Positions 1,375 through 59,088 of a stretch of 64,000 nt of DNA are shown here, in pieces. Within the stretch, counting starts at the first letter, position 1. Each line of letters begins with the position of its first letter. Origin of the DNA: Escherichia phage AV117; sequence record OR352947.1. One strand, written 5' to 3'. The notes under the pieces are model-generated. The model was not told where the DNA came from, searched no databases, and saw only the letters and a list, made by a program, of their open reading frames with translations. The translations under genes and the position numbers were made by a program.

Positions 1375-1403
1375 ATAGTAACACATCCTACAGGAGAGTA
1401 AAC
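1375..1403 (-). promoter_or_regulatory. T4 early-type promoter-like element (-35 GTTTAC, -10 TACTAT), approximate
   Basis: gtaaac on + strand at 1398-1403 with A/T hexamer about 17 nt away, directly upstream of minus-strand gene. Confidence 0.4.
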
Positions 1404-1442
1404 ATCTTTTTTTTAAACTTTTTCTGCCCTAAACGCACAAAA

Positions 1443-1460
1443 GGGAGACCGAAGTCTCCC
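1443..1460 (-). terminator. UUCG-tetraloop hairpin (GGGAGAC-UUCG-GUCUCCC)
   Basis: Perfect 7-bp stem with UUCG loop immediately after stop of small ORF 1469..1645. Confidence 0.6.
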
Positions 1461-1468
1461 TAAAATTA

Positions 1469-1645
1469 TGCAACAACCTTTCCAAAACGAGAAGCATCAT
1501 CTCGAAGAACTGCACGTGCTCTGCGCATGATCTTCTCAACTGTTTGATTAATACGAGAGTTCGACCCACGCTTGTATCCAGCGCGTTTAGAGGTACCATC
1601 AACTTTCTTTTCAACTGCTTTCTTTGCTTTAGCTTGTTTTGCCAT
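1469..1645 (-). CDS. small basic protein, 58 aa (MAKQAKAKKAVEKKVDGTSKRAGYKRGSN...), below ORF-track size cut-off
   Basis: Manual translation; stop abuts UUCG hairpin; coordinates hand-counted. Confidence 0.4.
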
Positions 1646-1808
1646 TATAAATTCTCTTTAAATGAAAATGCAGGACTTATTGACATTGCCTGCGCAAGCC
1701 CTCAAGGGGAACATAGGTTTTGGATATTTAACGACAGGATAACCATAAACCCGTCATCATACCTACCATGACTTACACAGCTAACATTTTGCTGACGCAT
1801 GATAGTAA

Positions 1809-2057
1809 TTATTTCAAAGTAATAACAAAATGACGAACTGCTTTACGTGCTGCAGAAGCCAGAGGCTTAGCATATTTCAATTCATCTTTAGCTTCCAGTT
1901 CAGAAGCCAGAGTAGCCTGAGCAGGATTCAGATGTTTGAAATATCGCAGGATTTCCAGTGCTTCGGCTTCAACATCAATAGATGCGCCGTAATTGTCATG
2001 GCCATTATTCCATGCATGGCGTTGCAGTTCAAGAGCGTGTTGTAATTGTTTAGTCAT
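1809..2057 (-). CDS. rIII: rIII lysis-inhibition accessory protein
   Basis: 82 aa, position next to gene 31, sequence matches recalled T4 rIII. Confidence 0.8.
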   Translation of the reverse strand: MTKQLQHALELQRHAWNNGHDNYGASIDVEAEALEILRYFKHLNPAQATLASELEAKDELKYAKPLASAARKAVRHFVITLK

Positions 2058-2173
2058 TTTAAATTCTCAATTCGAGATAATATTTAGTAGCCACGTTCGT
2101 CTGAATTTCACCTTCTTTCGACAAGTCTCTCAGTTGTAGGCTACCGCTTAGAAGAGTGTTCTCTTCATATAGT

Positions 2174-2181
2174 TATTTATA
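2174..2181 (-). promoter_or_regulatory. late promoter-like TATAAATA box upstream of rIII
   Basis: tatttata on + strand, about 115 nt upstream of rIII start on minus strand. Confidence 0.35.
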
Positions 2182-2514
2182 TCACTTATAAAGACACGGA
2201 ATAGCTTTATAGTGGCATGTTACGAATTTCTGTTTAATTTCTTTAGGTTGTTTAAGTCCCAAAGCCACAAATGGATGCGGAACATTTCGAATTTGTCCAA
2301 CTGGTAGTGGAGTCAAATCACCGACTTCAACAAAACCTTCAGGAACATCAGGACCTACAGAATGAACTACACATAGTTCAGGAACTTCACCTTGAACACG
2401 TTTACCAATCACAAGTCCTGATTCTGTAACTTCTTCATCACCTGCTTGTGCGGGTTCAGAAACCAGAATGACATATTCACCAACAGCACGAATTGGGAGT
2501 TGTACTTCAGACAT
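2182..2514 (-). CDS. 31: gp31 co-chaperonin (GroES-like) for capsid protein folding
   Basis: 110 aa; near-identical to recalled T4 gp31 (MSEVQ...[24 protein letters not shown]...). Confidence 0.9.
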
Positions 2515-2571
2515 CTTATTTCCTTGTTGTTTGACGATAGATTAATAATACCATACTATTCGTAAAGCATA

Positions 2572-2880
2572 TTACATAAGAAGCAAACGTTCTACCGGAG
2601 TGCCATCAACCGAAATTACTTTATCAAGGCGGAAAGAACGCCACTGACCTAACTTGGTATCGAATGCTCGAACTGATTCACGAGGTTCATAACGAACTTC
2701 TGTTGCTGGATTGTTATTTTCGTATTTGACTTCAAGTTCATCGCGCGAAGCAAACATAGTGCGTACCTCGCCGTTAGCCTTTTCAAATACAACACAATGA
2801 ACGCCTACAGACAGAATAGTTTTAATACGTTCACGAAGAACCATAGTTTCTTGTTCAGTTAAAATCATATTATTCACCAC
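2572..2880 (-). CDS. hypothetical protein (102 aa), T4 31.x-like position
   Basis: ORF track; synteny. Confidence 0.55.
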   Translation of the reverse strand: MVNNMILTEQETMVLRERIKTILSVGVHCVVFEKANGEVRTMFASRDELEVKYENNNPATEVRYEPRESVRAFDTKLGQWRSFRLDKVISVDGTPVERLLLM

Positions 2881-3451
2881 AAAAGTTTCGGATTTGTTCC
2901 CAATTCAGAGAACGAAGATTATTACGAGAGTACTGAATTACTTCAATACCAGCTTGTTTTAGAATGTCTGCCCAATTTTCAGGAGATCGGTCATATAATT
3001 CTGCATATACAACCTTTTTAATACCTGACTGTGTAATAGCTTTAGTGCAATCAGGACATGGAGAAAGTGTCGTATACAACGTAGCACCTTCAATAGAATT
3101 ACCTTTACGAGCTGCAAACAAAATTGCATTCAGTTCCGCATGGATTTCGTTATTAGCGGACCATGCACTATGAGCAGCCCGATGTTCTTTAGCCAAAACA
3201 AAATTATCGGCCCGTCCAAATGCTGTAGTGCCTTCTTTATGCCCAGCAACGATGACTGGGATTGGTTTATTCTTCAACCAACCATTTTCAGATGCATGTT
3301 CGCAACAGTTAACGCCACCTGCAGGTGAACCGTTATACCCAGTAGAAATAATGCGCCCATCTTTTTCAATGACTGCGCCAACTTTCCATGAACAACATTT
3401 TGATTCTTGAGAAATCAGATATGCAATCTGAAGGTATGTGCTAGCTTTCAT
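2870..3451 (-). CDS. cd: dCMP deaminase
   Basis: 193 aa; cytidine/dCMP deaminase zinc motifs (CAEH...PCPDC); T4 cd position. Confidence 0.9.
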   Translation of the reverse strand: MKASTYLQIAYLISQESKCCSWKVGAVIEKDGRIISTGYNGSPAGGVNCCEHASENGWLKNKPIPVIVAGHKEGTTAFGRADNFVLAKEHRAAHSAWSANNEIHAELNAILFAARKGNSIEGATLYTTLSPCPDCTKAITQSGIKKVVYAELYDRSPENWADILKQAGIEVIQYSRNNLRSLNWEQIRNFCGE

Positions 3452-4563: not shown

Positions 4564-4800
4564 TTATAGTGTTCCATATACTCGAGTTGCTTCAACGAGA
4601 CCATCACTGCCTAATTTAAGATTAGTAATTTGGTCACCATCTTTAGGATTAACGATTATGAGAAAAGAACGAGGAGATTCTTGAATAACTCGTAATGTTG
4701 CATCCTGGAAACGTTCAGACACTTTATTGATGAGTGTTTGAGCGAATTCTTTTACTTTAATCTGAAATTCGTGTACTGTAATTGGATTTTCACTTAGCAT
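4564..4800 (-). CDS. hypothetical protein (78 aa)
   Basis: ORF track; promoter-like element upstream. Confidence 0.5.
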   Translation of the reverse strand: MLSENPITVHEFQIKVKEFAQTLINKVSERFQDATLRVIQESPRSFLIIVNPKDGDQITNLKLGSDGLVEATRVYGTL

Positions 4801-4827
4801 TTCGATTTCCTCATTTTGGTAGAGTTA

Positions 4828-4857
4828 ATCATATCACAACTCTACTGTGTTGTAAAC
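4828..4857 (-). promoter_or_regulatory. early-type promoter-like element (-35 GTTTAC), approximate
   Basis: gtaaac at 4852-4857 on + strand upstream of minus-strand ORF; inverted repeat in spacer. Confidence 0.4.
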
Positions 4858-5140: not shown

Positions 5141-5365
5141 TCAGTGCACAGTATTTACTTTAACTCGAACAACAAATCGCTCGGTTGGTTCACCTACAGG
5201 AACAAACTCTACATGATATTCACCTTTGTAACGAGTATTCAGATCATTACGAATTCCTGCGAGTTTGTTGATTAATGTAGGACTCATATTAAGTCCCACT
5301 AGTTTACGAAGCATTTTGTATGCTTCATCTTCGATTTCATGATGTTTATCGTACATAGTTTTCAT
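5141..5365 (-). CDS. hypothetical protein (74 aa)
   Basis: ORF track. Confidence 0.5.
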   Translation of the reverse strand: MKTMYDKHHEIEDEAYKMLRKLVGLNMSPTLINKLAGIRNDLNTRYKGEYHVEFVPVGEPTERFVVRVKVNTVH

Positions 5366-5536
5366 TTAACCATTCAATTGCCTGGTCGACGTTATCAAAT
5401 ATACTGCCGTCCAACCATTCTTCATGTTCATAGTCCAGCACATCAATACCGAACCGTCCATTTACTAAAGGCCATACTACAAACAAATATTCTTTATGCT
5501 GTTCGATGGCCTCAATCACTTCATATAATCGTTTCA

Positions 5537-6623: not shown

Positions 6624-6624
<1 letters not shown>

Positions 6625-6923
6625 TATTTTATTCCTAAGAAAATTTCAAGAATACGAATGTTATGCTCGCGCCGGTCTTTATTAATTTCAGCAACGTTTT
6701 TATTAATTGACGTACTTCTAACGTTTGAAGAAATAAATTTAATCATATGACTTTTGAGTTGTTGCAAATCCAACCCTTTTTCTTTAGCAGCTTTACGAAG
6801 AGCTTTACCTGCTTCATCTAGTGCCTTTGCTGCATCTTTGTCATAATTGCCAAGTGACATTCCACGACAGATATCAATATACTCATCAGACCGTTTGATG
6901 TAATTCTCTAGTAATGTTTTCAT
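6624..6923 (-). CDS. hypothetical protein (99 aa)
   Basis: ORF track; promoter-like element upstream. Confidence 0.5.
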
Positions 6924-6951
6924 TTAGATTTCCTCAATTATCCATAGGAGC

Positions 6952-6981
6952 ATTATACTCTGCTCCTGAGAGTTTGTAAAC
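6952..6981 (-). promoter_or_regulatory. early-type promoter-like element (-35 GTTTAC, -10 TATAAT) with inverted repeat AGGAGCA/TGCTCCT bracketing -10
   Basis: gtaaac at 6976-6981; attata at 6952-6957; inverted repeat 6946-6967. Confidence 0.5.
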
Positions 6982-7486: not shown

Positions 7487-7839
7487 TCTGAGAGCTTCCT
7501 GAGGTCTTCTGCAAAGGAATCGAAGGACCTGTTGATTTGTTTTTCGACCAATCCTGGTTTACTTGCCACCACGTTCTTCTTCTTCGAATCCTTACGGAGC
7601 TTTTCATTTTCGGCCTTAAGTTGGTCAACTAAAACACGGTTCTTATAAGTCATTTCTTCGATTGACTGATATTGAACCTTGAAGTCGTCTAATACTTTAG
7701 CATTGTTTTTAGCGGTCTCTTTGACAGAAGCTAATTCAGTATTCAACGAATCAACTTTGTTGTTTAAGACAACTATTGTTGCCGTAGAAACTAGAGCAAA
7801 AGCTGTTACTATAGCATAAATCGGATTTACTTTAAGCAT
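7483..7839 (-). CDS. hypothetical membrane-anchored coiled-coil protein (118 aa)
   Basis: N-terminal hydrophobic segment followed by charged heptad-like region. Confidence 0.5.
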   Translation of the reverse strand: MLKVNPIYAIVTAFALVSTATIVVLNNKVDSLNTELASVKETAKNNAKVLDDFKVQYQSIEEMTYKNRVLVDQLKAENEKLRKDSKKKNVVASKPGLVEKQINRSFDSFAEDLRKLSE

Positions 7840-8327
7840 GTTTTAATAATCTCAATGATTTCATCTCGGGATAATCCATTGATAAGAACGGTTTTCGGAC
7901 CATCACACTGGATTTTGTACGATTCAAACAATACACACAACTCTTCTGCTGTATGATATGGACTTGAAATTCCGAGGCGGTTGAATTTGTCGGTAAGAGG
8001 GTCGCAAATAATGTAGAATTTTATACCTGAGATATGTACGTTTGGTTGACTAATATTAATGAACACATTAGCATCATATTTAGTCAAATTGTTTTGAAGA
8101 AATTCTACCATGGCATTAACTGCTTCTGGCATCGCTTCACGTTTCTCTTCGGTGTAACGTGTTGAATATTCCTTTTGCTTTAACTTCTTTTTAGCATTTT
8201 TCGCTAGAGTAGTACGAAGGTCCGTAAGATAACCAACGGCACGGCCTTTCTTAAAGACCCGGATTCCATCTGTAGAATCACCAAATGCTGCCACAACCAT
8301 ATCGTTAGTAATCAATTGCATATTCAT
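7827..8327 (-). CDS. alc: Alc, host transcription termination/unmodified-DNA transcription inhibitor
   Basis: Position between pseT.x and rnlA; start set to internal ATG (MNMQLI...) preceded by GAGGAG; ORF-track start at 8390 lacks RBS. Confidence 0.65.
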   Translation of the reverse strand: MNMQLITNDMVVAAFGDSTDGIRVFKKGRAVGYLTDLRTTLAKNAKKKLKQKEYSTRYTEEKREAMPEAVNAMVEFLQNNLTKYDANVFINISQPNVHISGIKFYIICDPLTDKFNRLGISSPYHTAEELCVLFESYKIQCDGPKTVLINGLSRDEIIEIIKTCLK

Positions 8328-8357
8328 AATTTTCTCCTCGTGATGTTGATAAAAGCC

Positions 8358-8387
8358 ATAGTAACACCTTCCTTGGTGTTTGTAAAC
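8358..8387 (-). promoter_or_regulatory. early-type promoter-like element (-35 GTTTAC) with CACC..GGTG inverted repeat in spacer
   Basis: gtaaac 8382-8387 between rnlA stop and alc start. Confidence 0.4.
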
Positions 8388-8389
8388 CA

Positions 8390-9523
<1,134 letters not shown>

Positions 9524-9540: not shown

Positions 9541-9570
9541 ATTGTACCACAATCCTTGTGGCATGTAAAC
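9541..9570 (-). promoter_or_regulatory. early-type promoter-like element (-35 GTTTAC, -10 TACAAT) with CCACAA..TTGTGG inverted repeat
   Basis: gtaaac 9565-9570 upstream of rnlA. Confidence 0.4.
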
Positions 9571-9988: not shown

Positions 9989-10002
9989 GGGACCGAAGTC
10001 CC
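9989..10002 (-). terminator. UUCG-tetraloop hairpin (GGGAC-UUCG-GUCCC) between nrdB and denA
   Basis: Perfect 5-bp stem with UUCG loop. Confidence 0.5.
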
Positions 10003-14256: not shown

Positions 14257-15952
<1,696 letters not shown>

Positions 15953-15986
15953 TTTATTCTCCTCTTCACTTTTATTTGATAGGACT

Positions 15987-16016
15987 ACTATAACATAGCC
16001 CTATCTTGTTGTAAAC
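15987..16016 (-). promoter_or_regulatory. early-type promoter-like element (-35 GTTTAC, -10 TATAGT) with GATAGG..CCTATC inverted repeat
   Basis: gtaaac 16011-16016. Confidence 0.45.
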
Positions 16017-16420: not shown

Positions 16421-16449
16421 TTTGATTTCCTCATGTTGTTGATAGAACT

Positions 16450-16478
16450 ATAATATCACATCTAGTGAAGAAGTAAAC
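16450..16478 (-). promoter_or_regulatory. early-type promoter-like element (-35 GTTTAC, 17-nt spacer, -10 TATTAT)
   Basis: gtaaac 16473-16478; ataata 16450-16455. Confidence 0.5.
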
Positions 16479-16509: not shown

Positions 16510-16527
16510 GGGAGACCGAAGTCTCCC
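16510..16527 (-). terminator. UUCG-tetraloop hairpin terminator after gene 32
   Basis: GGGAGAC-UUCG-GUCUCCC directly after gp32 stop. Confidence 0.65.
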
Positions 16528-43839: not shown

Positions 43840-43851
43840 GGGCCGAAGCCC
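43840..43851 (-). terminator. UUCG-tetraloop hairpin (GGGC-UUCG-GCCC) immediately after upstream gene stop
   Basis: 4-bp GC stem with UUCG loop. Confidence 0.4.
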
Positions 43852-44461: not shown

Positions 44462-44890
44462 TTATTCCTTAAAATGTGCTTTCAACATTTGATACAAAGA
44501 CCATGCCTGGTCGTTATTTTCGATAGTAATCGTCATCACCGGAAATTCAGACAATTCGTCAAGTTCACCAGAATCTTGCTCTTCGGACGCTTGATATGGA
44601 TTTTCAACTTCGTCAAAGAACTCTGCTTCATTCGTGGAGAGCCAGATAAAGTTTTCATCAAGGATATCACCGCCTGTTGCGTATCCAACCGTGCCAGTAG
44701 ATGTCACAATTTTAGTAGGACGTCCGAGATGGTCAACATCTAAAATTTTAAATGGCTCCATGCCAAGACGTCGTGCATAAATCCCATTATCAGTGTGGTT
44801 TTTAATAAACTCTTCTTGGGCACGTTTATCTTTAAATTGGTACCATGAGTTAACGCGGAATTTATTAGCCATTAGTAAGTTTCCTTCCAA
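44462..44890 (-). CDS. hypothetical protein (start possibly at 44872)
   Basis: ORF track. Confidence 0.5.
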
Positions 44891-45144
44891 TAAGTTGTAC
44901 CATTTTCAGTGATTTCACGGAAGATGCCATAGATAGGCATTTCGTCACCGAGTTTTTCGTAAACGTAAACCACTTCGGTGTAGCATAAAAATTCGGTCCA
45001 GTTTTTCTGTACAACAACTAAATCAGGATTAAACAGAACATCTTCAAACTCATCGATGTTTGAATCAGTAGTTACGTTTTTAATGATTTGACGTTTCATA
45101 ATATTCTCCTCTTGTTTTGATAGGTCTATAGTATCATAGACCAT
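44872..45144 (-). CDS. hypothetical protein (90 aa)
   Basis: ORF track. Confidence 0.5.
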
Positions 45145-45157
45145 AGTTGTTGTACAT
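45128..45157 (-). promoter_or_regulatory. early-type promoter-like element with GGTCTAT/ATAGACC inverted repeat
   Basis: variant -35 on minus strand; -10 TACTAT. Confidence 0.35.
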
Positions 45158-45681
45158 CATTTTAGCAAAATAAAATCAACTTGTTCTGACAATGAACGTC
45201 TAAACATTAATTGACAACTTCCGAGGATGAAATCAGGTGCTTCATAGACCGCGATGTAGTATCCTTTAGCTTTCAAGAGTTCAACATCCACCTGGTCATC
45301 AAACCATGCATAAACCGCGTCAACACTTTCAAATCCAAAATATAACCCTTTAGCCCAATCTTCACTCAATTCAAATGAGTGGTCAATTCTATAGTATCTT
45401 AAGATATTTTGTTCAAGGAGTTTGTCTTCATTTACTGTAGGACGATTAGGGACATTATAGTTGTCGCCGTGATGGTAGAAGTTACCTGAGAGTATTCCAT
45501 GCTTATCAAGGAACTCCCATGTTTCTTCAGAGTTGTCGGTGCCCGACCAACCGTATGGCGAACGAGGTTCTTTATTCCAAGAGGTTTCCCAAATTCTGAC
45601 GGCTTTACCATCTTCGATAGCAATTCCTGGTAATGATTCACGTTGAGTACAAAAACTACGTTCTACGCGGTAAACTAACAT
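45157..45681 (-). CDS. hypothetical protein (174 aa)
   Basis: ORF track. Confidence 0.55.
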   Translation of the reverse strand: MLVYRVERSFCTQRESLPGIAIEDGKAVRIWETSWNKEPRSPYGWSGTDNSEETWEFLDKHGILSGNFYHHGDNYNVPNRPTVNEDKLLEQNILRYYRIDHSFELSEDWAKGLYFGFESVDAVYAWFDDQVDVELLKAKGYYIAVYEAPDFILGSCQLMFRRSLSEQVDFILLK

Positions 45682-45707
45682 ATTATTCTCCTCTGGTTGA
45701 TATGGTT

Positions 45708-45736
45708 ATAATATCAAAACCAGAGGAGAAGTAAAC
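45708..45736 (-). promoter_or_regulatory. early promoter (-35 GTTTAC, 17 nt, -10 TATTAT); spacer carries reverse complement of downstream SD region
   Basis: gtaaac 45731-45736; ataata 45708-45713; inverted repeat 45684-45696 / 45717-45729. Confidence 0.55.
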
Positions 45737-46169: not shown

Positions 46170-46688
46170 TTAAGCTTTAAGAGGAGACACATAGCGAGTG
46201 ATTTCAGATTCTTTAACAACTCGGAAGTCACCTAAGAATACGATATTGTATAGCTTTTCACCATCTTCAACCCATTGGTCGCTAATGAAGCCACACATGA
46301 TATCAGTTGTGCTTGGATAACCGTATTCGTCGATGTAATCAAATTCTTTATCGGTTATAAATTCAACGCCTTTGCAAAGAGCCCATTTGAACTGTACATT
46401 AGGTTCAGTAGAAGCAAAATGAGCGCTCACACGAGTTTCCAGGAATTTAGGACTTACGTAAGCGTACTGAGTATCCTGACGTCCAAAACTAGGAATGATT
46501 CGAACTTTAACTTCTTTAATGCGTCCCATGCCATTTGTGCGAAGTCCGACAACTTCAACCAGACGACCTGCGGCTTTAGACCGGGATGCAGTTGATACAC
46601 GCTTAATTTCACCAATAGTAATCATAATTTCTCTCTCTTTGTTTAAATTGAATTCACTATACTCCATCCATCCTTGGATGTACAACAT
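46170..46688 (-). CDS. hypothetical protein, paralog family member 2 (start possibly internal)
   Basis: Paralog similarity. Confidence 0.6.
   Translation of the reverse strand: MLYIQGWMEYSEFNLNKEREIMITIGEIKRVSTASRSKAAGRLVEVVGLRTNGMGRIKEVKVRIIPSFGRQDTQYAYVSPKFLETRVSAHFASTEPNVQFKWALCKGVEFITDKEFDYIDEYGYPSTTDIMCGFISDQWVEDGEKLYNIVFLGDFRVVKESEITRYVSPLKA
46656..46685 (-). promoter_or_regulatory. early-type promoter-like element with CATCC/GGATG inverted repeat
   Basis: variant -35 TTGTAC; -10 TATAGT. Confidence 0.35.
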
Positions 46689-47224
46689 TAATTAAGGATA
46701 TTAACTACTGCACTACGTGGAACCACACTAAAATCACCGGCATGAACAACGTTCAGAAGTTCAACACCGTCTTCAATCCATTGGTCAGTTACCCATCCAT
46801 TTACTGGACCATCGAATGGGCGTCGAATTGAAACATATTTACACAATAAATCAGTAGGCTCAATAGGCTTAATCAGAGTACCGTACATACAAACGATATC
46901 CATATCAAAGTGGAGACCATCTTTAACAGGTGCTTCTTCAATCAAGAGTTCAAAGTCGGTGCTTGGAAGGGCGGTAGTAGAAATTGTACCGTATAAATTT
47001 TTAATTTCTAAGAATAACCAAGGGCCTTCAACTTGTTTAATGAAGTTAACAATAGTGAAACTATTACCTTGAGTGGCGCCTAAAATTTCACAAAACTTTT
47101 CGTAAGCTCGCACTGAAGCACCGTACCAATTGATTTGTTTTTCGTCTTTCAGGATGTAAGTAGCCGTAGTATTGATATTCATAATGTTTTCCCGTTTGGT
47201 TAAGATAGAAAGATTATACTCCAA
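46688..47224 (-). CDS. hypothetical protein, paralog family member 3 (178 aa)
   Basis: C-terminal DQWIEDGVELLNVVHAGDFSVV block. Confidence 0.6.
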   Translation of the reverse strand: MEYNLSILTKRENIMNINTTATYILKDEKQINWYGASVRAYEKFCEILGATQGNSFTIVNFIKQVEGPWLFLEIKNLYGTISTTALPSTDFELLIEEAPVKDGLHFDMDIVCMYGTLIKPIEPTDLLCKYVSIRRPFDGPVNGWVTDQWIEDGVELLNVVHAGDFSVVPRSAVVNILN

Positions 47225-47242
47225 CCGTCCTTGGTTGTAAAC
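47213..47242 (-). promoter_or_regulatory. early-type promoter-like element (-35 GTTTAC, -10 TATAAT) with CAACC/GGTTG inverted repeat
   Basis: gtaaac 47237-47242. Confidence 0.45.
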
Positions 47243-49559: not shown

Positions 49560-50306
49560 TTAACCTTTAATCAGTTGGAATAATGATGCGCTAAGTGGTA
49601 AGCCACGTTTCAATTTTAATTTACCAATGAAACCAATCTTTTCAAAACGTTGCAGACCTTGGATAACTTTATCATATGTATCGAAAAGCGATTCAGCGTC
49701 AGTTAATTTAGTTTTAGTTTTCCAGTCAGAGCCTTTAAGAAGAACGTTGAGTTTAGTAAGTTCATGGCCTTCTGCTTGATGTGAGCCATTAATGCGTGCT
49801 TTCAAAGCAACAATTCTAAGTTTAGATTCGTTAGATAAAGGTTGATTTTTCATCATGTTCGCCATATGCTTAACACGATTTTCACGTTTTGCTCGGATTT
49901 TTAAAATAGTACCATAAACCTTTTTAATTTGGGCCCATTTCTTCTCGTCGAGATTAAGTTTCTCTACTTTACGGGCAGAAGGATTAGCGATACGTCTTGC
50001 AATGGCATCACGTTTCTCAATAAGTTCTTCTAATGTTAAATCAGAACGAGCCGTGTTATATTTTTTCTTAACTGGGATAACATTACCTTTAATGTAGCCG
50101 ATATCGTTATTAAAACGTTCTAAGGATAATTTCTCACCTTCAACAGAGTTATTGAAAGATTCACCTGAGTAAGCGCAGACCTTTTGATCAAGAATGTTTT
50201 TAAGGTAATTAAAATCTAAGTTAAAATCCTTAGAGCGTCTCTTCGCAGAAGCTCTGGTGTGGTCAAGACGACGATTGATTTTGTTAATTTTATTATTTGA
50301 TAACAT
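49560..50306 (-). CDS. srd: Srd-like protein (putative anti-sigma / sigma-mimic)
   Basis: 248 aa; assigned by synteny between dda.1 and modA only. Confidence 0.5.
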   Translation of the reverse strand: MLSNNKINKINRRLDHTRASAKRRSKDFNLDFNYLKNILDQKVCAYSGESFNNSVEGEKLSLERFNNDIGYIKGNVIPVKKKYNTARSDLTLEELIEKRDAIARRIANPSARKVEKLNLDEKKWAQIKKVYGTILKIRAKRENRVKHMANMMKNQPLSNESKLRIVALKARINGSHQAEGHELTKLNVLLKGSDWKTKTKLTDAESLFDTYDKVIQGLQRFEKIGFIGKLKLKRGLPLSASLFQLIKG

Positions 50307-50355: not shown

Positions 50356-50384
50356 ATAATATCATGCCCTCAGGTAGTGTACAC
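50356..50384 (-). promoter_or_regulatory. early-type promoter-like element (-35 GTGTAC, 17 nt, -10 TATTAT)
   Basis: Shares GATAGGTCTATAATATCATG block with motA promoters. Confidence 0.45.
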
Positions 50385-50458: not shown

Positions 50459-51067
50459 TCAGTAACTGACAATAGACAGATTCCAGATTGTATAACGTCC
50501 GTCTTGAATAATAGAATCTACACGCAGTGTAGTCCCTATAGGGAGCATAAATTCACATTCGTCAGATATAAGTCTAGCATTAGACCGTCTTGTCGCTTCA
50601 GGGAAAGCTCCATTGAACTCGCAAGATGGTGCAGCCAGAATCATATTAAGCATATGTTCACGGAAGTTGAAAGCAAATGGTGCATCTTTGATGCAGAACA
50701 TATTAAATGTTCCATAAAAATTATATGAAGCAAAGTTACGTGCCACACCAAACACTGGACTAAAGCTCATTACTCTGTCAAATTTAATAATACTACCAAC
50801 GCCTTTATCATCGAGTGTGGCCATAGTTTTCTTAGAGATTCCACGATACATTGTCTCAGGAACTGAAGAAGACCAATTTCTACGAACAATTGCACTTAAA
50901 TCTTGTTGGATGCTGTCTGGCTTGTTTTCCATACACTGCCACAGTACACTTTGTTCAATGTCACTGAATTGCTCATCGATTTTGTACTGAAGCATATCTT
51001 GATAATCCGGGCATTGAGCACGACGAACCATTTCTTCAATTTCACACTCGTTATACGGCATAAACAT
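50459..51067 (-). CDS. modA: ADP-ribosyltransferase ModA-like
   Basis: 202 aa; R (YRG) - S-x-S - E-x-E (DECEF) ART motif spacing; synteny. Confidence 0.7.
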   Translation of the reverse strand: MFMPYNECEIEEMVRRAQCPDYQDMLQYKIDEQFSDIEQSVLWQCMENKPDSIQQDLSAIVRRNWSSSVPETMYRGISKKTMATLDDKGVGSIIKFDRVMSFSPVFGVARNFASYNFYGTFNMFCIKDAPFAFNFREHMLNMILAAPSCEFNGAFPEATRRSNARLISDECEFMLPIGTTLRVDSIIQDGRYTIWNLSIVSY

Positions 51068-51095: not shown

Positions 51096-51125
51096 ATAGT
51101 ATCATCATCGGAAGAGTTTGTACAC
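51096..51125 (-). promoter_or_regulatory. early-type promoter-like element
   Basis: variant -35 GTGTAC; -10 TACTAT. Confidence 0.35.
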
Positions 51126-51706
51126 TAAAAATTCAACATTTTCAAATGAATGATTTTGTATAATCGAGATAAAGGGTCATATTCTAAGTCTTCAATTTCC
51201 ACAATCTCAAATCTAGAGATACCTGAGACCATGTACTCTTGTTCAGATTCAATCATATCTAGGACATCGATACGAGTTTCTTCCATAACATGCTTAGGGT
51301 TTTTTCCGGCAAGTACAATGTTAATCATGTTTTGGTAGTAATCAAAAATGAATGGAGCATTCCTGAGACTAAGAATAGTGTACGTCTGATATTCCCAGCT
51401 CCCGGAGAATTGACGAGCTGTACTGAAATCAGTTGTGAACGATGTTACTCGTCCAGGAGACCAATGACATCCAACAGAAAGAAGGGAAAGTCGTTCTACT
51501 TCTTCCGGAGTTACACCGCGGTAGAGTTCTACTGGTACTGTAGAAGTCATATGCTTACGAACAAGATGGTCTAATTCATAGTGGAAATCCGGGTCTTCCT
51601 TAGAATCGGTGCAAGCCCAGAGAATATTTTGTTCTTGGCGGGTGAATTTGCTATCAATCAGATTTGTTAGGTATTCACGTTCTTGAAGTTCAGATTGACA
51701 TGTCAT
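51125..51706 (-). CDS. modB: ADP-ribosyltransferase ModB-like
   Basis: 193 aa; YRG ... SFTT ... E-x-E motifs; paralog of adjacent modA. Confidence 0.65.
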   Translation of the reverse strand: MTCQSELQEREYLTNLIDSKFTRQEQNILWACTDSKEDPDFHYELDHLVRKHMTSTVPVELYRGVTPEEVERLSLLSVGCHWSPGRVTSFTTDFSTARQFSGSWEYQTYTILSLRNAPFIFDYYQNMINIVLAGKNPKHVMEETRIDVLDMIESEQEYMVSGISRFEIVEIEDLEYDPLSRLYKIIHLKMLNF

Positions 51707-51733
51707 GATAGACCTCCATTTAAAGATAAGCCT

Positions 51734-51762
51734 ATCATAACACGAGAGGAGGGAATGTAAAC
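51734..51762 (-). promoter_or_regulatory. early-type promoter-like element (-35 GTTTAC)
   Basis: gtaaac 51757-51762. Confidence 0.4.
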
Positions 51763-52774: not shown

Positions 52775-53067
52775 TCAGAATAACTTGACCCAGAATCACC
52801 AGGCCAAGACGATACGTATGAATGATTATAATCGGAAGAGCTTGAAGCATTAACCTGTTTTGTTTTTGGACGAACAACTTCTTCCATCATTCCGTCGCCG
52901 ATATATTCCCAACTTTTTTCGTGTGTATCAGGAATAGGCATCATACCTTCGCCTGGTTTAACAGCAAACAACTTCTTCAGCATCGTAAGCATTAATTGTT
53001 CCTCGAACAAAACGAACACCACCATCGTCCCAACGAATTTCGGCATTAAATTTGACGTCTTCACCAT
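52744..53067 (-). CDS. hypothetical Ser-rich protein (start uncertain, possibly near 52992)
   Basis: ORF track; overlaps neighbour unless internal start used. Confidence 0.4.
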   Translation of the reverse strand: MVKTSNLMPKFVGTMVVFVLFEEQLMLTMLKKLFAVKPGEGMMPIPDTHEKSWEYIGDGMMEEVVRPKTKQVNASSSSDYNHSYVSSWPGDSGSSYSDCGSSSGSCE

Positions 53068-53224
53068 CCATCATGAATGAGTGTACGACTACATCATCAT
53101 AATATCCAAGACCGTATTTCAACGAAACTTCTTGAGCAATCAAAGCACCTAATGTGTTATTAGGTTTAATCCAGCGATTTAACATATTGTTCTCCTCTTG
53201 AGTAAGTAAAGAATATCTTAACAC
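52958..53224 (-). CDS. hypothetical protein (88 aa)
   Basis: ORF track. Confidence 0.5.
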   Translation of the reverse strand: MLRYSLLTQEENNMLNRWIKPNNTLGALIAQEVSLKYGLGYYDDVVVHSFMMDGEDVKFNAEIRWDDGGVRFVRGTINAYDAEEVVCC

Positions 53225-53267
53225 AGTTTTTAGTGGTTGTAAACTGTAGGTAGAAACAAAAAAAAAA

Positions 53268-53285
53268 GGAATCCCGAAGGATTCC
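53268..53285 (-). terminator. intrinsic terminator after soc: GGAAUCC-UUCG-GGAUUCC followed by U9
   Basis: Hairpin plus poly-A on + strand (poly-U on transcript). Confidence 0.75.
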
Positions 53286-53294
53286 TTAAATTAT

Positions 53295-53531: not shown

Positions 53532-53562
53532 AATTAACTCCTTTGTTGTTTAATTACAGGTG

Positions 53563-53570
53563 TATTTATA
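53563..53570 (-). promoter_or_regulatory. late promoter TATAAATA for soc
   Basis: tatttata on + strand about 30 nt upstream of soc start. Confidence 0.55.
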
Positions 53571-53577
53571 TCAGTAA

Positions 53578-54099
53578 TCAGTAACCATTATCCTGGCGTT
53601 CAAAGTTGTGTTGGTTTTTCAAGTAGTAAAGTTTAAAGATTTCTTCAGCGGAAAGACCAAGACCTTGGAACATATTCAGAACAAAGTGCAGAATATCAAT
53701 CATCTCGAATTTAATTTCGAGCTGGTCTTCAGGAGACAGTTCATCGATACGACGATTTCGATATTCAGCATGTTGAGCTTTCCAAGGCTTCCATACAGAG
53801 CTAGCGGCTTTTTCACCATTGCTCATACCACCGAGTGAAGTCAACAGTTCACGGAATTCATCATCAATATAATCTTTCTGATTACGCAGCCAATCAACAA
53901 CATCGCCAGCAGTGGCCAATTCGTCAGGATGTTTGTTATGTTCAGGCTTATCATTTGCCAGACGAATCTGTAAAGATTTCTGCATATCAAGCATTACCTG
54001 CAGAGGGTCTTTATCTTCATGAATCAGAGCATTAAAATAAGCTTCTTCTGCTTTATCAACACCAGAAATAAGTTGTGAACATTCGTTAAAGTGCGCCAT
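53578..54099 (-). CDS. 56: dCTP pyrophosphatase (gp56-like, MazG-type)
   Basis: Synteny next to soc; start set to ATG with AGGA RBS (MAHFNE...). Confidence 0.6.
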   Translation of the reverse strand: MAHFNECSQLISGVDKAEEAYFNALIHEDKDPLQVMLDMQKSLQIRLANDKPEHNKHPDELATAGDVVDWLRNQKDYIDDEFRELLTSLGGMSNGEKAASSVWKPWKAQHAEYRNRRIDELSPEDQLEIKFEMIDILHFVLNMFQGLGLSAEEIFKLYYLKNQHNFERQDNGY

Positions 54100-54189: not shown

Positions 54190-54387
54190 ATGTTTAAACT
54201 TCCATCGTTAATCAACGCTATTAAAGGCAATAAAAAGAAAACTGCTATCGCTGCAATAGTTGTAGGTGGCATTATTTCATGGAACTTCGGGATTGCGCCA
54301 TTGTTAGTTGCCCATGGTGTTATGGTTCCTTCTGTTCCATTGGATACTGTAGTTGATTTAGCCTTTGCTATTATAGGGCTTGTCTAA
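54190..54387 (+). CDS. small membrane protein (65 aa) on + strand inside minus-strand early region
   Basis: Strong RBS AAGGAGATATT-ATG; hydrophobic segments. Confidence 0.55.
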   Translation: MFKLPSLINAIKGNKKKTAIAAIVVGGIISWNFGIAPLLVAHGVMVPSVPLDTVVDLAFAIIGLV

Positions 54388-56131: not shown

Positions 56132-56791
56132 TTAACCTCGATTCATAAATGCATTAAATATTTGGTCATCAACAGAAATTTCTAATTCGACTTCAATTGC
56201 TTCAGCCTTTTCTTCAGGTGGTAATTCGTATCCACACACTACAATTTTTTCATCAATATCAAAATATACGGAAGCAATATGATTAATGTTATTTTCGGTT
56301 AAGTCTAAATCAACATCAACATCTTTTTGACCTACACTTAAAGGATAACTAATACGGGTTATTTTATTATCTTTAACAAAGAGACCACCGACATACTCTG
56401 TACTACGTTTGAAGTTTACACGTTTCCGAAATGAAAGATATGATGCATCTTTACCGTGAGCTCGGCTCATAGGACATAATGAATAGCTAGAATAAGAGAT
56501 GTCAAATCCTACACCTTCAATATGAGCCAACGCGTCATGATTAAACCAATTATAATCATATGCCAAATCCATTATATTGTAATATGTGAAAGGCACCGGA
56601 TTAACATCATACGTTGTACCTTTAAAATCTGCCCAGGCAACGATTTCGTTATCTTTAACAATTACAAAAATTACACCAATATGGTATCCGTTATTATTTT
56701 CGTTCGGCGTTATATTATAACATTGTGCATTAGGAAATTTACCATATTTAAATGGCGCATTTTTGTGCATATAATAAATCATATTATTCAC
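56132..56791 (-). CDS. hypothetical protein (219 aa)
   Basis: ORF track. Confidence 0.55.
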   Translation of the reverse strand: MNNMIYYMHKNAPFKYGKFPNAQCYNITPNENNNGYHIGVIFVIVKDNEIVAWADFKGTTYDVNPVPFTYYNIMDLAYDYNWFNHDALAHIEGVGFDISYSSYSLCPMSRAHGKDASYLSFRKRVNFKRSTEYVGGLFVKDNKITRISYPLSVGQKDVDVDLDLTENNINHIASVYFDIDEKIVVCGYELPPEEKAEAIEVELEISVDDQIFNAFMNRG

Positions 56792-57077
56792 CTGTGATTT
56801 CGGTTACGATATCTTTGTTATCGAAATTAGGGTCACAATACAAAACATAATTGTACTGCATGATGCCGCCAGTCTTAAGTTGTTCAACAACTTTATTAAC
56901 CATATTAGGACGGTCTCGTTTAGTGATGTTCATGATATCAGAGAAGATTTGTTGTTCAACATCTTCTTGATTTGCAGTCATTGACCACTCACAGAGGTCT
57001 TTATCATAACCTGCTGTAACTGGAGCCGGTGCACATGATACTGCAAGTAAGATTGCTGCCAATGATAACTTTTTCAT
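56784..57077 (-). CDS. secreted/periplasmic protein with signal peptide (Sp/spackle-like position)
   Basis: 97 aa; N-terminus MKKLSLAAILLAVSCAPAPVTA. Confidence 0.5.
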   Translation of the reverse strand: MKKLSLAAILLAVSCAPAPVTAGYDKDLCEWSMTANQEDVEQQIFSDIMNITKRDRPNMVNKVVEQLKTGGIMQYNYVLYCDPNFDNKDIVTEITGE

Positions 57078-57106
57078 TTTAACTCCTTAGTTGATTTGAT
57101 AGGACT

Positions 57107-57136
57107 ACTATACTATAGTCCATCTATAATGTAAAC
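57107..57136 (-). promoter_or_regulatory. early-type promoter-like element (-35 GTTTAC) with GGACTA/TAGTCC inverted repeat
   Basis: gtaaac 57131-57136. Confidence 0.45.
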
Positions 57137-57140: not shown

Positions 57141-57389
57141 TTATTCTTTTTCGCGAATAATAATTACTTGTTGAGTCTGCTGAGCAGATTTCTTTTCGGC
57201 AACGATAGACCAAATTAAAGTTCCAATCCAACCAACCATCGTCCAGTTAAAGAGTAAAGATACAAAGAAGATTGCTGTTGTGCTTTTTGTGCCACGAATA
57301 AGTGCGATTACCCAAGGCAACATGTAAATGATGATTGAACCAATACCTGCGATTAAAACTGCTACTGAACTAGCTACGAATAATTCCAT
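57141..57389 (-). CDS. small integral membrane protein (82 aa, 2 predicted TM)
   Basis: Hydrophobic segments. Confidence 0.5.
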   Translation of the reverse strand: MELFVASSVAVLIAGIGSIIIYMLPWVIALIRGTKSTTAIFFVSLLFNWTMVGWIGTLIWSIVAEKKSAQQTQQVIIIREKE

Positions 57390-57417: not shown

Positions 57418-57447
57418 ATAATATCTTGTTTTGACTTTGGCGTAAAC
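57418..57447 (-). promoter_or_regulatory. early-type promoter-like element (-35 GTTTAC, -10 TATTAT)
   Basis: gtaaac 57442-57447. Confidence 0.45.
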
Positions 57448-57450: not shown

Positions 57451-57819
57451 TTAATTAAATTTGTTTAAACGTTCAATACACTGGACGTAGTTATTTGCGA
57501 TTTGTTTCTGGGTAGGCTCTTTACCGGTTGTTTCAACATAGCGAATGAATGCTATTTCAGTAGCCTGTAGACAATGTTCTTTAACGCGTTGTTCTTTTGG
57601 CAATGCTACAGTATCAGAGTCACGATAACGTTGAGCATGGGCATCAGCTTGAATCATTCGATTACCTACAGTAACCGGGTCTTCCACTTCAACTTTAGGT
57701 TGGTCATACTGTTTAACATTCGGATTGTAAATCAGTTGGCCAACGTTATTAGGGATAAAGCCATGGGCACCACATCCGGTTAATCCAAATACCATTGCTA
57801 AAGCGATTAATTTTTTCAT
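57451..57819 (-). CDS. putative lipoprotein (122 aa; LTGC lipobox)
   Basis: N-terminus MKKLIALAMVFGLTGCGA. Confidence 0.55.
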   Translation of the reverse strand: MKKLIALAMVFGLTGCGAHGFIPNNVGQLIYNPNVKQYDQPKVEVEDPVTVGNRMIQADAHAQRYRDSDTVALPKEQRVKEHCLQATEIAFIRYVETTGKEPTQKQIANNYVQCIERLNKFN

Positions 57820-57837
57820 TTCAATTTCCTCTGTAGT

Positions 57838-57867
57838 TGATAGAAAGATAGTAACACAGTATGCGAT
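57838..57867 (-). promoter_or_regulatory. early-type promoter-like element (-35 GTTTAC, -10 TACTAT)
   Basis: gtaaac 57862-57867. Confidence 0.45.
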
Positions 57868-57879
57868 GCTTGTAAACAG

Positions 57880-58092
57880 CTATTTTAAACTTTTGCGAAA
57901 TTTGCGTTTTTCTTGACGAATCTGTCGTTTAGTCGGACGTACAGCAAATTTAACGAAGTCCACTTTGCCATGTGGAAACTTTTCAGATGCTTCACAGTCC
58001 ATCATTAGTTCCCATCCTTCCAGAATAAGAGCTTTCCATTGCGTAGTTGATGCAAATTCGTATGTTGATGGTTTAAACACAGTTGAATACAT
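57880..58092 (-). CDS. hypothetical protein (70 aa)
   Basis: ORF track. Confidence 0.45.
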   Translation of the reverse strand: MYSTVFKPSTYEFASTTQWKALILEGWELMMDCEASEKFPHGKVDFVKFAVRPTKRQIRQEKRKFRKSLK

Positions 58093-58093
58093 A

Positions 58094-58306
58094 TTATCCT
58101 CTTAAATCAGCTTCAAAAACTTTCTCGTCATTAACAAATGCTTTAACTAATGCGTTGTTCACTTCAGCAAGTTGTACAGCAACCCACTCAATTTCTTCAC
58201 GGTCACCTGATAACATGATATCTTTAGTGAACATCTCACCGCTTTTAAACCAACCAATAAAAGTAACTTTAGTTAATTTGCTCATATTTCCTCGCAAAAT
58301 GCCCAT
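58094..58306 (-). CDS. hypothetical protein (70 aa)
   Basis: ORF track. Confidence 0.45.
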   Translation of the reverse strand: MGILRGNMSKLTKVTFIGWFKSGEMFTKDIMLSGDREEIEWVAVQLAEVNNALVKAFVNDEKVFEADLRG

Positions 58307-58599
58307 TCAGCGTGATAAACTGTAGCACCTTTAGTATCATTCATTTGAACTACATCTACCGGAGAAATTACTCGATAGAGACGTGGTTCACCTCCATAAG
58401 AGCGTGCTGCTCGTCCTGCATAAATCTTTGCTAAACCGATATCTTCAGTAAAGAATACCCGATCCAAGTTTTTCTTACGTCCTGTTTCAGACAGAACTCC
58501 TGTTTCTTCAGGAGGACAAAGCATGTTTTCGATGTTAGCTGAACTACTTGAACCGTGATAAAAAATCTTAAATTCTGCTTTACAATCGATGGTTTTCAT
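58282..58599 (-). CDS. hypothetical protein (105 aa)
   Basis: ORF track. Confidence 0.5.
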   Translation of the reverse strand: MKTIDCKAEFKIFYHGSSSSANIENMLCPPEETGVLSETGRKKNLDRVFFTEDIGLAKIYAGRAARSYGGEPRLYRVISPVDVVQMNDTKGATVYHAEWAFCEEI

Positions 58600-58625
58600 T
58601 TTGTTCTCCAGTAGTTGATAGGTCT

Positions 58626-58654
58626 ATAATAACACAACTACTGGAGAAGTAAAC
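58626..58654 (-). promoter_or_regulatory. early promoter (-35 GTTTAC, 17 nt, -10 TATTAT); spacer carries reverse complement of downstream SD region
   Basis: gtaaac 58649-58654; ataata 58626-58631; inverted repeat 58606-58617 / 58635-58648. Confidence 0.55.
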
Positions 58655-59029
58655 TTAAAAACGTAATTTAGATACATCTGCGTTGATTTCGCTTTGGTTT
58701 GCGTCGTATGCAATTAAACGAACAGCTTTAGATGGGTCATTCAATGCATAGAAATGATGGAACATTGCTCGAACGATATCACCATTTACGAGTTCTACCT
58801 GGATAGGAGAACCTTTTTCGAGTTGGAAATGTTCATAAGCTTTGATGGTTCGCAGATAATCAAGTTTTTGATTTCCGGCTCCAACAATTTGTACAATACG
58901 TTTGCCCATGTTTTCCATACGAGATACAATAGTTTTAGGAGCAAGAATAACGTAGGTTGCCAGCGGAGAAACTACTTCAACAGTTGTGTTTTCGGTGATT
59001 GCAGTAAAAATTGCTTGAGACATATTCAT
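58655..59029 (-). CDS. hypothetical protein (124 aa)
   Basis: ORF track. Confidence 0.5.
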   Translation of the reverse strand: MNMSQAIFTAITENTTVEVVSPLATYVILAPKTIVSRMENMGKRIVQIVGAGNQKLDYLRTIKAYEHFQLEKGSPIQVELVNGDIVRAMFHHFYALNDPSKAVRLIAYDANQSEINADVSKLRF

Positions 59030-59058
59030 AATGTTTTCCTCTTGGTTTGTGTAAGTAC

Positions 59059-59088
59059 ATCATATCATGCCTAGAGGAAGATGTAAAC
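59059..59088 (-). promoter_or_regulatory. early-type promoter-like element (-35 GTTTAC) directly downstream of gp41 terminator hairpin
   Basis: gtaaac 59083-59088. Confidence 0.4.

Follow-up and report, generated by a model that had tools for sequence, protein, structure and literature searches.

Predicted T4-type early promoters organised as stem-loop cassettes in the early-gene region of Escherichia phage AV117

The early promoters of bacteriophage T4 are sigma-70 promoters of the UP/-35/TGn/-10 class (Hinton 2010, PMC2988021). In phages RB49 and phi1, early promoters are combined with stem-loops in cassettes called promoter early stem-loops (PeSLs), for which the accessible part of the original report distinguishes five positional classes (Arbiol 2010, PMC2839356). 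[quoted passage not shown] PeSLs were then extended to PST/T4 (TTTACW-N17-TAYWAT) and to nt-1/KVP40 (Comeau 2014, PMC4122927). In another known arrangement, the T4 e, soc, 49 and I-TevI genes have hairpins that sequester the ribosome-binding site and contain an internal late promoter (Uzan and Miller 2010, PMC3014915). Here we describe a family of early-promoter-like elements, about half of which have an inverted repeat around the -10 box, in a 64,000-nt stretch of Escherichia phage AV117 (sequence record OR352947.1), referred to as the window. An earlier note on this DNA had described the family at positions 1375-59088 and had likened it to PeSLs. Each promoter is designated below by its upper coordinate.

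The window corresponds to the early-gene region of a coliphage of the T4-like genus Mosigvirus (Straboviridae). A search for GTTTAC and TAnnnT separated by 17 or 18 nt gave 25 matches, all on the minus strand, whereas 2.0 ± 1.3 were expected on both strands together and none of 100 shuffles reached 25. Twenty-three of these matches lie in gaps upstream of minus-strand genes, and the other two (19897 and 32522) are intragenic. Variants with GTGTAC, TTGTAC or ATGTAC at -35 added five promoters, and the set with variants comprises 28 elements, one of which (932-960) falls outside the range of the earlier note. A generic TTGACA/TATAAT sigma-70 scan of the window showed no enrichment over shuffles, which makes the signal specific to a -35 hexamer of the T4 type. 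The claim that more than 20 such elements exist was therefore confirmed, whereas the claim that almost every minus-strand intergenic gap carries one was overstated, as the motif was found in 25 of the 43 minus-strand gaps of at least 35 nt.

Alignment of the elements gave aaaaA..aGTTTACa ... taTGnTAttATag.CcTATCaaa. The -10 box is extended by TGn (TG at -15/-14) in 22 of the 28 elements, and an A occupies the seventh nucleotide past the -10 box, the predicted start, again in 22. The 25 nt upstream of the -35 box contain 75% A+T as compared with 62% for the window, resembling a UP tract. Gaps of about 55-65 nt hold the promoter, its leader (predicted to be 20-43 nt) and the Shine-Dalgarno (SD) sequence of the next small early gene. 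The genes are co-oriented with the promoters and include asiA, motA, ndd, srd, mod, imm, sp, alc and gene 63. This is the anatomy of T4 early promoters, which share the GTTTAC hexamer, the 17-18 nt spacer, TGn, TAnnnT, the A/T-rich upstream tract and the conserved start region. The early genes downstream are also the same as in T4, in which homologous cassettes are found at motB, dmd and motB.2 (the last of these with its promoter at 8218). We found no essential difference from the T4 promoters; the window elements are Mosigvirus orthologues and paralogues of them, with starts that are predicted here. The T4 records NC_000866 and AF158101 have no annotated promoter features. Both the anatomy and the genes downstream bore out the early-promoter reading of the earlier note, and they support the assignment of the elements as sigma-70-dependent early promoters of a T4-like Mosigvirus, with all 28 assignments being predictions.

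Pairing across the -10 box was evaluated with a swap-halves control, in which the spacer of each promoter was paired with the 30 nt past its own -10 box and then with those of every other promoter, so that position-specific composition was kept. At least six perfect base pairs were found in 12 of the 28 elements as compared with 14% of swapped pairs, and at least seven in 9 of the 28 as compared with 4.4%. None of 10,000 permutations reached the observed mean or count of inverted-repeat pairing. When G:U pairs were allowed, 15 of the 28 had a stem of at least 6 bp. Thus the inverted repeats reported by the earlier note are real, although its statement that most copies have one holds only if wobble pairs are counted. 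The example that it gave, TAGGACTA/TAGTCCTA, was found at 36482-36505. Sense-strand RNA folding of the spacer-to-leader segment gave a mean z-score of -1.72, with 9 of 25 segments below -2. The same -10-bracketing stems are present in T4 itself, where they are likewise in excess, being carried by 6 of the 16 promoters in the syntenic 56 kb (permutation p = 0.0008 and 0.006).

The stems occupy several positions. In six cassettes (class A) the right arm lies on the SD sequence, whereas ten stems hug the -10 box and end between -2 and +7. Four or five promoters have a small hairpin within the spacer, and the remaining promoters are without any stem. A terminator-type hairpin lies upstream of five promoters, and four of these hairpins have UUCG tetraloops followed by Us; the embedded stems, with loops of 6-10 nt that contain the -10 box, are separate from them. 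A gap of the size given above, filled by promoter and leader, would confine a hairpin to the spacer and to the bases past the -10 box. These would be the parts with low promoter information, and they are complementary in about half of the promoters.

The cassettes were compared with the published PeSLs as far as the accessible parts of those reports describe them. Like PeSLs, they are intergenic composites that run from the upstream stop codon through an early promoter, a stem-loop and an SD sequence to the ATG. [quoted passage not shown] The cassettes are also clustered among small accessory genes, and indels between close relatives end in them. In contrast, the window promoters are of the T4 GTTTAC type rather than the TTGACA type of RB49, and their stems are not polyG/polyC. 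Furthermore, the published PST/T4 stems are described as lying just upstream of the promoter, whereas many stems in the window and in T4 bracket the -10 box. Mini-circles from recombination between neighbouring cassettes and termination or attenuation of transcription from upstream are further PeSL properties. The likeness to PeSLs claimed by the earlier note extended to every PeSL property that a sequence can reveal. However, the location of the -10 box within the loop, which the note had taken as a difference, is not one, as stems overlapping the -10 box belong to the commonest PeSL arrangement (PMC2839356). On sequence grounds we class the elements as early promoters of the T4 type that are arranged in PeSL-like cassettes, a kind that has already been described. 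A limited literature search, covering parts of the papers concerned, found no description of Mosigvirus cassettes, nor of stem covariation and strand asymmetry. With these elements, the known range of PeSL-type cassettes, and of their connection with the gain and loss of genes, reaches the RB69/JS09-like Mosigvirus, a group that is often isolated for use in phage therapy.

At 95-98% identity, five close relatives had too few substitutions for covariation to be assessed from them alone, and paralogous families and IMG/VR were therefore used instead. Pattern searches of IMG/VR yielded members of two cassette families from outside the window. Family 1 has the pattern ACAAACTCT-[7]-AGAGTATAAT-[7]; it includes promoters 35766 (ndd) and 6981 of the window and 7215 (motB) of T4, and it precedes at least six different genes across phages. 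In this family 99.1% of the stem positions were paired and four of the seven pairs were changed on both sides, giving compensated stems such as GGGACC/GGTCCC, GAGAGC/GCTCTC and GGGGTC/GACCCC. None of 500 shuffles reached this level, and pairing dropped to 35-50% when the partners were slid. Fourteen G:U mismatches were found as compared with one C:A. Family 2 has the stem TAGGACTA..TAGTCCTA and includes window promoters 36518, 36009, 57136 and 16016 and T4 promoter 20612 (dmd); 95.6% of its positions were paired and three of the nine pairs were changed on both sides. Family 2 stems are much more stable on the sense strand, for example at 16016 (-16.0 kcal/mol as compared with -8.9 kcal/mol for the antisense strand). 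Chance matches to the family patterns in unrelated contigs showed no complementarity, providing an internal negative control. A search of viral contigs for relatives of the motB.2-like protein gave three near-identical loci only.

Wobble pairs were then counted in 197 distinct promoters from all loci searched, with G:T and A:C treated alike. The 69 unique stems contained 23 G:T and 5 A:C mismatches (p = 0.0009), whereas the swapped halves contained 241 and 216, respectively. Because compensatory changes occur and G:U is tolerated while A:C is not, the hairpin is probably selected in the sense-strand RNA. Covariation together with this strand-specific wobble excess is the modest new piece, as it points to stems that are selected in an RNA confined to read-through transcripts.

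Transcription from a cassette's own promoter would start about 7 nt past the -10 box. Since this predicted start is downstream of the left arm, which lies in the spacer, we infer that the hairpin is present only in read-through RNA from an upstream promoter. There it would act as a transcript-boundary or insulator element, that is as an attenuator, a 3′-end stabiliser or a processing barrier, and would be equivalent to the UUCG terminator hairpins that precede other promoters. Six cassettes have a hairpin that would, in addition, mask the ribosome-binding site. Translation of a gene masked in this way would be free on the transcript of its own early promoter, whereas on read-through RNA it would be poor or would depend on coupling. 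Such a concrete role (insulation and in part ribosome-binding-site masking) would apply to a feature that was earlier discussed mainly as a recombination site or terminator.

The read-through RNA of 58654 folded at -22.1 kcal/mol (z -5.0) and that of 45736 at -23.9 kcal/mol (z -5.2), with GGAG fully paired in both, whereas RNA from the predicted start of either promoter folded at 0 kcal/mol. At 16478 the unpaired probability of the SD sequence was 0.62 in the promoter's own transcript and 0.22 in read-through RNA, and at 51762 it fell from 0.64 to 0.24 in read-through; none of 24 swaps gave a value as low in either case. For five promoters (58654, 51762, 45736, 16478 and 8387) no swapped upstream half masked the SD sequence as well as the natural one. 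The predicted switch, in which the SD sequence is paired in the long transcript but accessible in the short one, was obtained for 58654, 45736, 51762, 16478 and 59088, whereas the ten stems that end near +1 did not give it. As masking was not significant across all promoters, the idea that it is universal was dropped, and masking was retained for a subset.

The six class A cassettes follow the same logic as the T4 e, soc, 49 and I-TevI hairpins, as the promoter lies within the region encoding the 5′ arm or loop. The short transcript, lacking this arm, is predicted to be translatable, and the long read-through transcript to hide the SD sequence. In T4, however, the internal promoter is late (gp55, TATAAATA), whereas here it is an early sigma-70 promoter (GTTTAC/TAnnnT). 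An early internal promoter would favour immediate-early expression, whereas the T4 late switch delays expression; moreover, most stems described here are off the ribosome-binding site.

Hairpins with C(UUCG)G tetraloops in intercistronic and terminator positions of T4 were reportedly described by Tuerk et al. in 1988. The window contains eight such hairpins on the gene strand, most of them followed by Us, and four lie directly upstream of early promoters, forming terminator-promoter composites. We compared 24 distinct orthologous promoters of the open reading frame (ORF) 58282-58599 from diverse T4-like phages and found that a stronger upstream terminator tended to accompany a weaker embedded hairpin (Spearman -0.41, p = 0.046, uncorrected for phylogeny). 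Lineages with an upstream UUCG terminator had weak embedded stems, and those lacking it had strong ones. The strong stems are of different types, as Mosigvirus has a 14-bp anti-SD stem and other lineages have a GGGAC/GTCCC stem that hugs the -10 box. This inverse relation suggests that upstream terminators and embedded hairpins may be interchangeable as transcript-boundary elements. In two T4-like IMG/VR contigs (L056 and L060), GGGGC..GCCCC followed by T5 replaces the -35 box and spacer upstream of the homologue of ORF 58282-58599. There the terminator hairpin is followed by TGnTATAAT, a terminator fused to an extended -10 promoter.

The window was aligned to 50-kb syntenic stretches of five Mosigvirus genomes (ST0, ST2, LF82-35, moha and mar005P1). 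Ten early-region indels were found, five of which had both ends in cassettes. The 71-amino-acid ORF 33176-33391, missing in moha and mar005P1, lies exactly between 86-bp repeats that run from the -35 box to ATGTCTAAA. ST2 lacks the motB.2-like gene; promoters 45736 and 45157 are joined there in a hybrid, in which 9 bp of pairing with the SD sequence are retained. ORF 46688-47224, also missing in ST2, lies between promoters 47242 and 46685, which have a common spacer. LF82-35 lacks ORF 58655-59029, promoters 59088 and 58654 containing the endpoints of this indel, and an extra frd.2 paralogue in LF82-35 is joined at promoter cassettes. The hybrid promoters could be read directly and show the crossovers. 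One further indel, a 61.4-like deletion, ends 13-23 nt upstream of the -35 box of promoter 57877, and the other four are unrelated to promoters. The finding that 5 of 10 indels have both ends in cassettes gave a binomial p = 0.0014, a conservative value in which endpoints were placed at gene junctions, about 31% of which carry a promoter. An independent repeat search identified the cassettes as the largest direct-repeat families in the window. Cassettes with 30-90 bp of similar sequence would allow homologous recombination to insert, delete or swap the small genes that they flank. The earlier note had proposed comparing cassette boundaries with gene-content breakpoints between related phages, and the two do coincide in these five indels, with hybrid promoters visible. 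The list of cassettes predicts sites in these phages at which accessory genes, with their own expression signals, could be inserted or removed.

Two further differences between the relatives were seen. Upstream of frd.1, LF82-35 has at 5360-5470 a cassette of another family (CAGGGTA..TACTAT..TACCCTG) that resembles T4 7144, whereas the window has TAGGGCTA/TAGTCCTA (15978-16016); thus the whole promoter was replaced rather than just mutated. In moha (43157-43543, as compared with 53571-53614 of the window) two extra small genes, soc.1 and soc.2, lie between gene 56 and soc, and no early promoter is associated with this indel.

Taken together, an account in which T4-type early promoters contain RNA-selected read-through hairpins and are shuffled as PeSL-type cassettes is, in our judgment, probably correct, with the role of the hairpin being inferred. 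Several points weigh against it. Thirteen of the 28 promoters are without a stem of at least 6 bp, and the stem is therefore not needed for promoter function. The embedded stems have no U tract and are followed by ATCAA-type sequence; therefore they are not canonical intrinsic terminators, a definition that the separate UUCG hairpins do fit. Masking across all 25 promoters was no different from the swapped control (Wilcoxon p = 0.2). Within the window, upstream terminators and embedded hairpins tended to be distributed in a complementary manner, with only one of the five terminator-bearing promoters also having a strong stem, but this trend was not significant (Fisher p = 0.36-0.63). The wobble counts, like the ortholog correlation, are uncorrected for phylogeny, and a transcription-linked C-to-T bias on the non-template strand could add to the G:T excess. 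Moreover, the start sites and any termination in this phage are predicted.

The strand asymmetry also bears on explanations in which RNA plays no part. Were the inverted repeats to act in the DNA, with cruciforms or hairpins serving as recombination hot spots (for example, for a structure-specific nuclease), the RNA would be irrelevant and G:T and A:C mismatches would be equally frequent, but the ratios were 23:5 for the unique stems and 14:1 for family 1. Although the indels between relatives do end in cassettes, as hot spots would predict, the crossovers fall in the longest shared stretches (the 86-bp repeat extending into the first codons, and the 27- and 75-bp spacers) and not specifically in stems, and stemless promoters such as 33138/33459 and 47242/46685 recombine too. 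We consider this explanation improbable. We give the same low standing to the possibility that the repeats are functionless by-products of cassette duplication and of quasi-palindrome (template-switch) mutation that perfects palindromes. The cassettes have clearly been duplicated and exchanged, and template switching, as in T4 mutagenesis, could transfer a change between the two arms in the absence of selection. However, template switching yields perfect Watson-Crick arms rather than a strand-specific G:T excess. It also leaves unexplained the recurrence at promoters of stems with unrelated sequence, as seen in the swap test, the targeting of the SD sequence and the inverse relation with upstream terminators among orthologs. 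Least likely of all, and in our view very improbable, is a dyad operator at which a dimeric phage or host protein would shut off the early promoters. The repeats overlap the -10 box, where a repressor would act, and the mechanism of T4 early-promoter shut-off is not completely understood (PMC3014915). However, the arms differ wholly in sequence between promoters (CTCCAGTAGTTG, GGTACAGG, TGAGAGC and TAGGACTA), and within families they change by compensatory substitution, whereas a protein site would conserve sequence and not pairing. In addition, arm position and loop size are variable and the repeat is present in only about half of the promoters.

A more serious competitor, although still one that we consider rather unlikely, holds that the stems are mainly translational. 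The ribosome-binding site would be hidden in read-through RNA, as in an early-promoter version of the T4 e/soc/49/I-TevI switch, and the gene would be expressed only from its own early promoter or when a ribosome ending at the upstream stop codon melts the stem. Six cassettes do pair the spacer with the SD sequence, five promoters are masked better than by any swapped half, and the stems of 58654 and 45736 fold at -22 and -24 kcal/mol. Furthermore, 9 bp of pairing with the new SD sequence persist in the ST2 hybrid promoter, the T4 motB.2 stem differs and yet follows the same logic, and another phage retains the 58654 stem through two G:U changes. However, ten stems have their ends at the predicted start or close to it, off the ribosome-binding site, masking over all promoters is not significant, and the hairpins of orthologs of one gene are of other types. 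A wider possibility, which we also consider rather unlikely, is that T-even-type phages in general, including T4, use the embedded stems to label an RNA according to its start. RNA from the cassette's own promoter may then be unstructured and translatable, while read-through RNA may be insulated and, in a subset, have its ribosome-binding site hidden. Each small early gene may thereby be an autonomous portable expression unit. The device may be an early-promoter mirror image of the T4 lysozyme/soc/49 late switch that is kept by RNA-level compensatory evolution.

The individual promoters, all on the minus strand, are described below by stem position, beginning with class A. Promoter 59088 (59036-59088; GTTTAC-18-TATGAT; z -2.3) serves the 124-amino-acid ORF 58655-59029; its spacer TTCCTCT pairs with the SD sequence AGAGGAA, and the UUCG-tetraloop terminator hairpin GGAGAC-TTCG-GTCTCC is directly upstream (59096-59111). 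Promoter 58654 (58604-58654; GTTTAC-17-TATTAT) serves the 105-amino-acid ORF 58282-58599 and has the 14-bp SD-masking stem TTCTCCAGTAGTTG/CAACTACTGGAGAA. At 51762 (51713-51762; GTTTAC-17-TATGAT), which precedes an ADP-ribosyltransferase gene (51125-51706), CCTCC in the spacer pairs with the SD sequence GGAGG. Promoter 45736 (45686-45736; GTTTAC-17-TATTAT) precedes the motB.2-like ORF 45157-45681 and has the 13-bp SD-masking stem TTCTCCTCTGGTT/AACCAGAGGAGAA. In the motA cassette (33062-33147), which is the lower copy of the 86-bp direct repeat, the promoter GTTTAC-17-TATTAT is at 33110-33138. A stem-loop, GGGCT..AGCCC, lies just upstream (33147-33166), and the 50 nt upstream fold at -12.3 kcal/mol. 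The last member of class A, 16478 (16427-16478; GTTTAC-17-TATTAT), serves the frd.2-like ORF 16016-16420; its spacer TTCTTCA pairs with the SD sequence TGAGGAA, and a UUCG-tetraloop terminator hairpin followed by Us is directly upstream (16510-16527).

The stems that hug the -10 box include all the window members of both families. In family 1, promoter 35766 (35730-35766; TTGTAC-18-TATAAT) precedes ndd (35246-35692) and has the stem TGAGAGCA/TGCTCTCA (-13.9 kcal/mol, z -3.6). The other member, 6981 (6946-6981), precedes ORF 6624-6923 and has the ACAAACTCT-stem-AGAGTATAAT-stem arrangement with the stem AGGAGCA/TGCTCCT. In family 2, promoter 36518 (36482-36518; z -3.2) precedes ORF 36199-36462 and has the stem TAGGACTA/TAGTCCTA, whereas 36009 (35973-36009) has TAGGATTA/TAGTCCTA with one U:G pair. 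At 57136 (57102-57136), upstream of sp (56784-57077), the stem is GGACTA/TAGTCC, and at 16016 (15978-16016), upstream of the frd.1-like ORF 15704-15952, TAGGxCTA..TATAGTAGTCCTA forms a 10-bp stem with one G:U. Four other stems hug the -10 box. Promoter 45157 (45123-45157; ATGTAC-18-TACTAT), which serves cef (44872-45099) and was the recombination partner in ST2, has GGTCTAT/ATAGACC; 30627 (30588-30627; GTTTAC-18-TACTAT), which serves asiA (30291-30563), has the 6-bp stem TGATAT/ATATCA; 4857 (4819-4857; GTTTAC-18-TATGAT), which serves ORF 4564-4800, has an 8-bp stem, GTAGAGTT/AACTCTAC, that brackets the -10 box; and 960 (919-960; GTTTAC-17-TATTAT; z -3.4), which serves ORF 525-890, has the 10-bp bracketing stem TTGGTACAGG/CCTGTACCAA (class B).

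The leader of 36009 differs from that of the relatives. At 35966-35985, 18 bp present in all five relatives, including the SD sequence GAGGAA, are missing, and the ATG of the ndd.1-like ORF (35769-35969) is now about 4 nt past the predicted start of this promoter. Therefore the ndd.1-like mRNA would be nearly leaderless.

A small hairpin within the spacer was assigned to 8387, 9570, 33459, 46685 and 47242. Promoter 8387 (8358-8387; GTTTAC-18-TACTAT), in the 62-nt gap between gene 63 (rnlA) and alc, serves alc (7827-8327) and has the hairpin ACACC/GGTGT. Promoter 9570 (9541-9570; GTTTAC-18-TACAAT; z -2.1) precedes the RNA ligase/gene 63 homologue (8390-9514) and has CCACAA/TTGTGG. The cassette of 33459 (33383-33468), with GTTTAC-17-TATTAT at 33431-33459, is the upper copy of the 86-bp repeat and serves ORF 33176-33391; a UUCG-tetraloop terminator hairpin is upstream (33484-33501). 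The sequence TGCTTCA in the spacers of 33138 and 33459 was considered as a MotA box and rejected by eye, as it lies 7 nt from the -10 box and not 11-13. Promoter 47242 (47213-47242; GTTTAC-18-TATAAT) serves ORF 46688-47182, and 46685 (46656-46685; TTGTAC-18-TATAGT) is at the 46688 gene junction (motB-like ORF); the spacer sequence CCAAGGAyGGwTGGAG is common to both.

The remaining promoters have no stem. These are 1403 (1375-1403; GTTTAC-17-TACTAT; ORF 965-1333), a 75% paralogue of the 960 cassette with no significant inverted repeat; 19773 (19744-19773; GTTTAC-18-TACTAT; rnh, 18794-19711), with no -10-spanning stem; 50384 (50356-50384; GTGTAC-17-TATTAT; srd, 49560-50306); 51125 (51096-51125; GTGTAC-18-TACTAT), upstream of an ADP-ribosyltransferase gene (50459-51067); 53244 (53215-53244; GTTTAC-18-TAAGAT; ORF 52958-53185), without an embedded stem and with a UUCG-tetraloop terminator of a 9-bp stem and T10 directly upstream (53266-53287); 57447 (57418-57447; GTTTAC-18-TATTAT; imm, 57141-57389); and 57877 (57848-57877; GTTTAC-18-TACTAT; ORF 57451-57819). 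The other C(UUCG)G hairpins, also on the minus strand, are at 9989-10002, 37331-37346, 41955-41972 and 43838-43853. A core block shared by several copies, GATAGGTCTATAATATCATG, had been placed by the earlier note at 33101, 33422, 50347 and 58618. The first three copies are exact, the last of them in promoter 50384, whereas the fourth, at 58617, has three mismatches (17/20); a further copy at 45119 has two.

A 10-kb piece of the window was 96-98% identical to Escherichia phages ST0 and HX01 and to many other Mosigvirus; roughly 140 genomes show 95-99% identity. Minus-strand genes occupy 1-19.7 kb and 30.3-64 kb, with a plus-strand tail-fibre block (genes 34-38 and t) between them. By the relatives' annotation and PHROG matches, the minus-strand blocks are T4 pre-replicative genes: pseT, alc, gene 63, denA, nrdAB, td, frd, 32, 59, rnh, asiA, motA, 52, ndd, denB, rIIB/A, 39, cef, motB, dexA, dda, srd, modA/B, mrh, soc, 56, 61, sp, imm, dmd and 41. 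An Rfam scan of the window gave no matches at the family gathering score, and a tRNA scan was empty. Parts of the tail-fibre genes 34-38 (22644-29600, plus strand) are about 73% identical to those of ST2 and LF82-35 or cannot be aligned with them, whereas the flanks are 90-97% identical; this divergence is a host-range mosaic. Internal repeats are present at 21159-22090 (gene 34), and 27-nt repeats at 28866-28946 (gene 37). A 65-amino-acid ORF on the plus strand (54190-54387), opposite to the surrounding minus-strand early block, lies between genes 56 and 61, and the annotations of all five relatives give it as a hypothetical protein. A late-type TATAAATA box is present upstream of soc at about 53561-53568. 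Finally, the longest alc ORF (7827-8390) starts at 8390, but the true start is the ATG at 8327, as indicated by a full-length PHROG match (166 amino acids) and by the position of promoter 8387.

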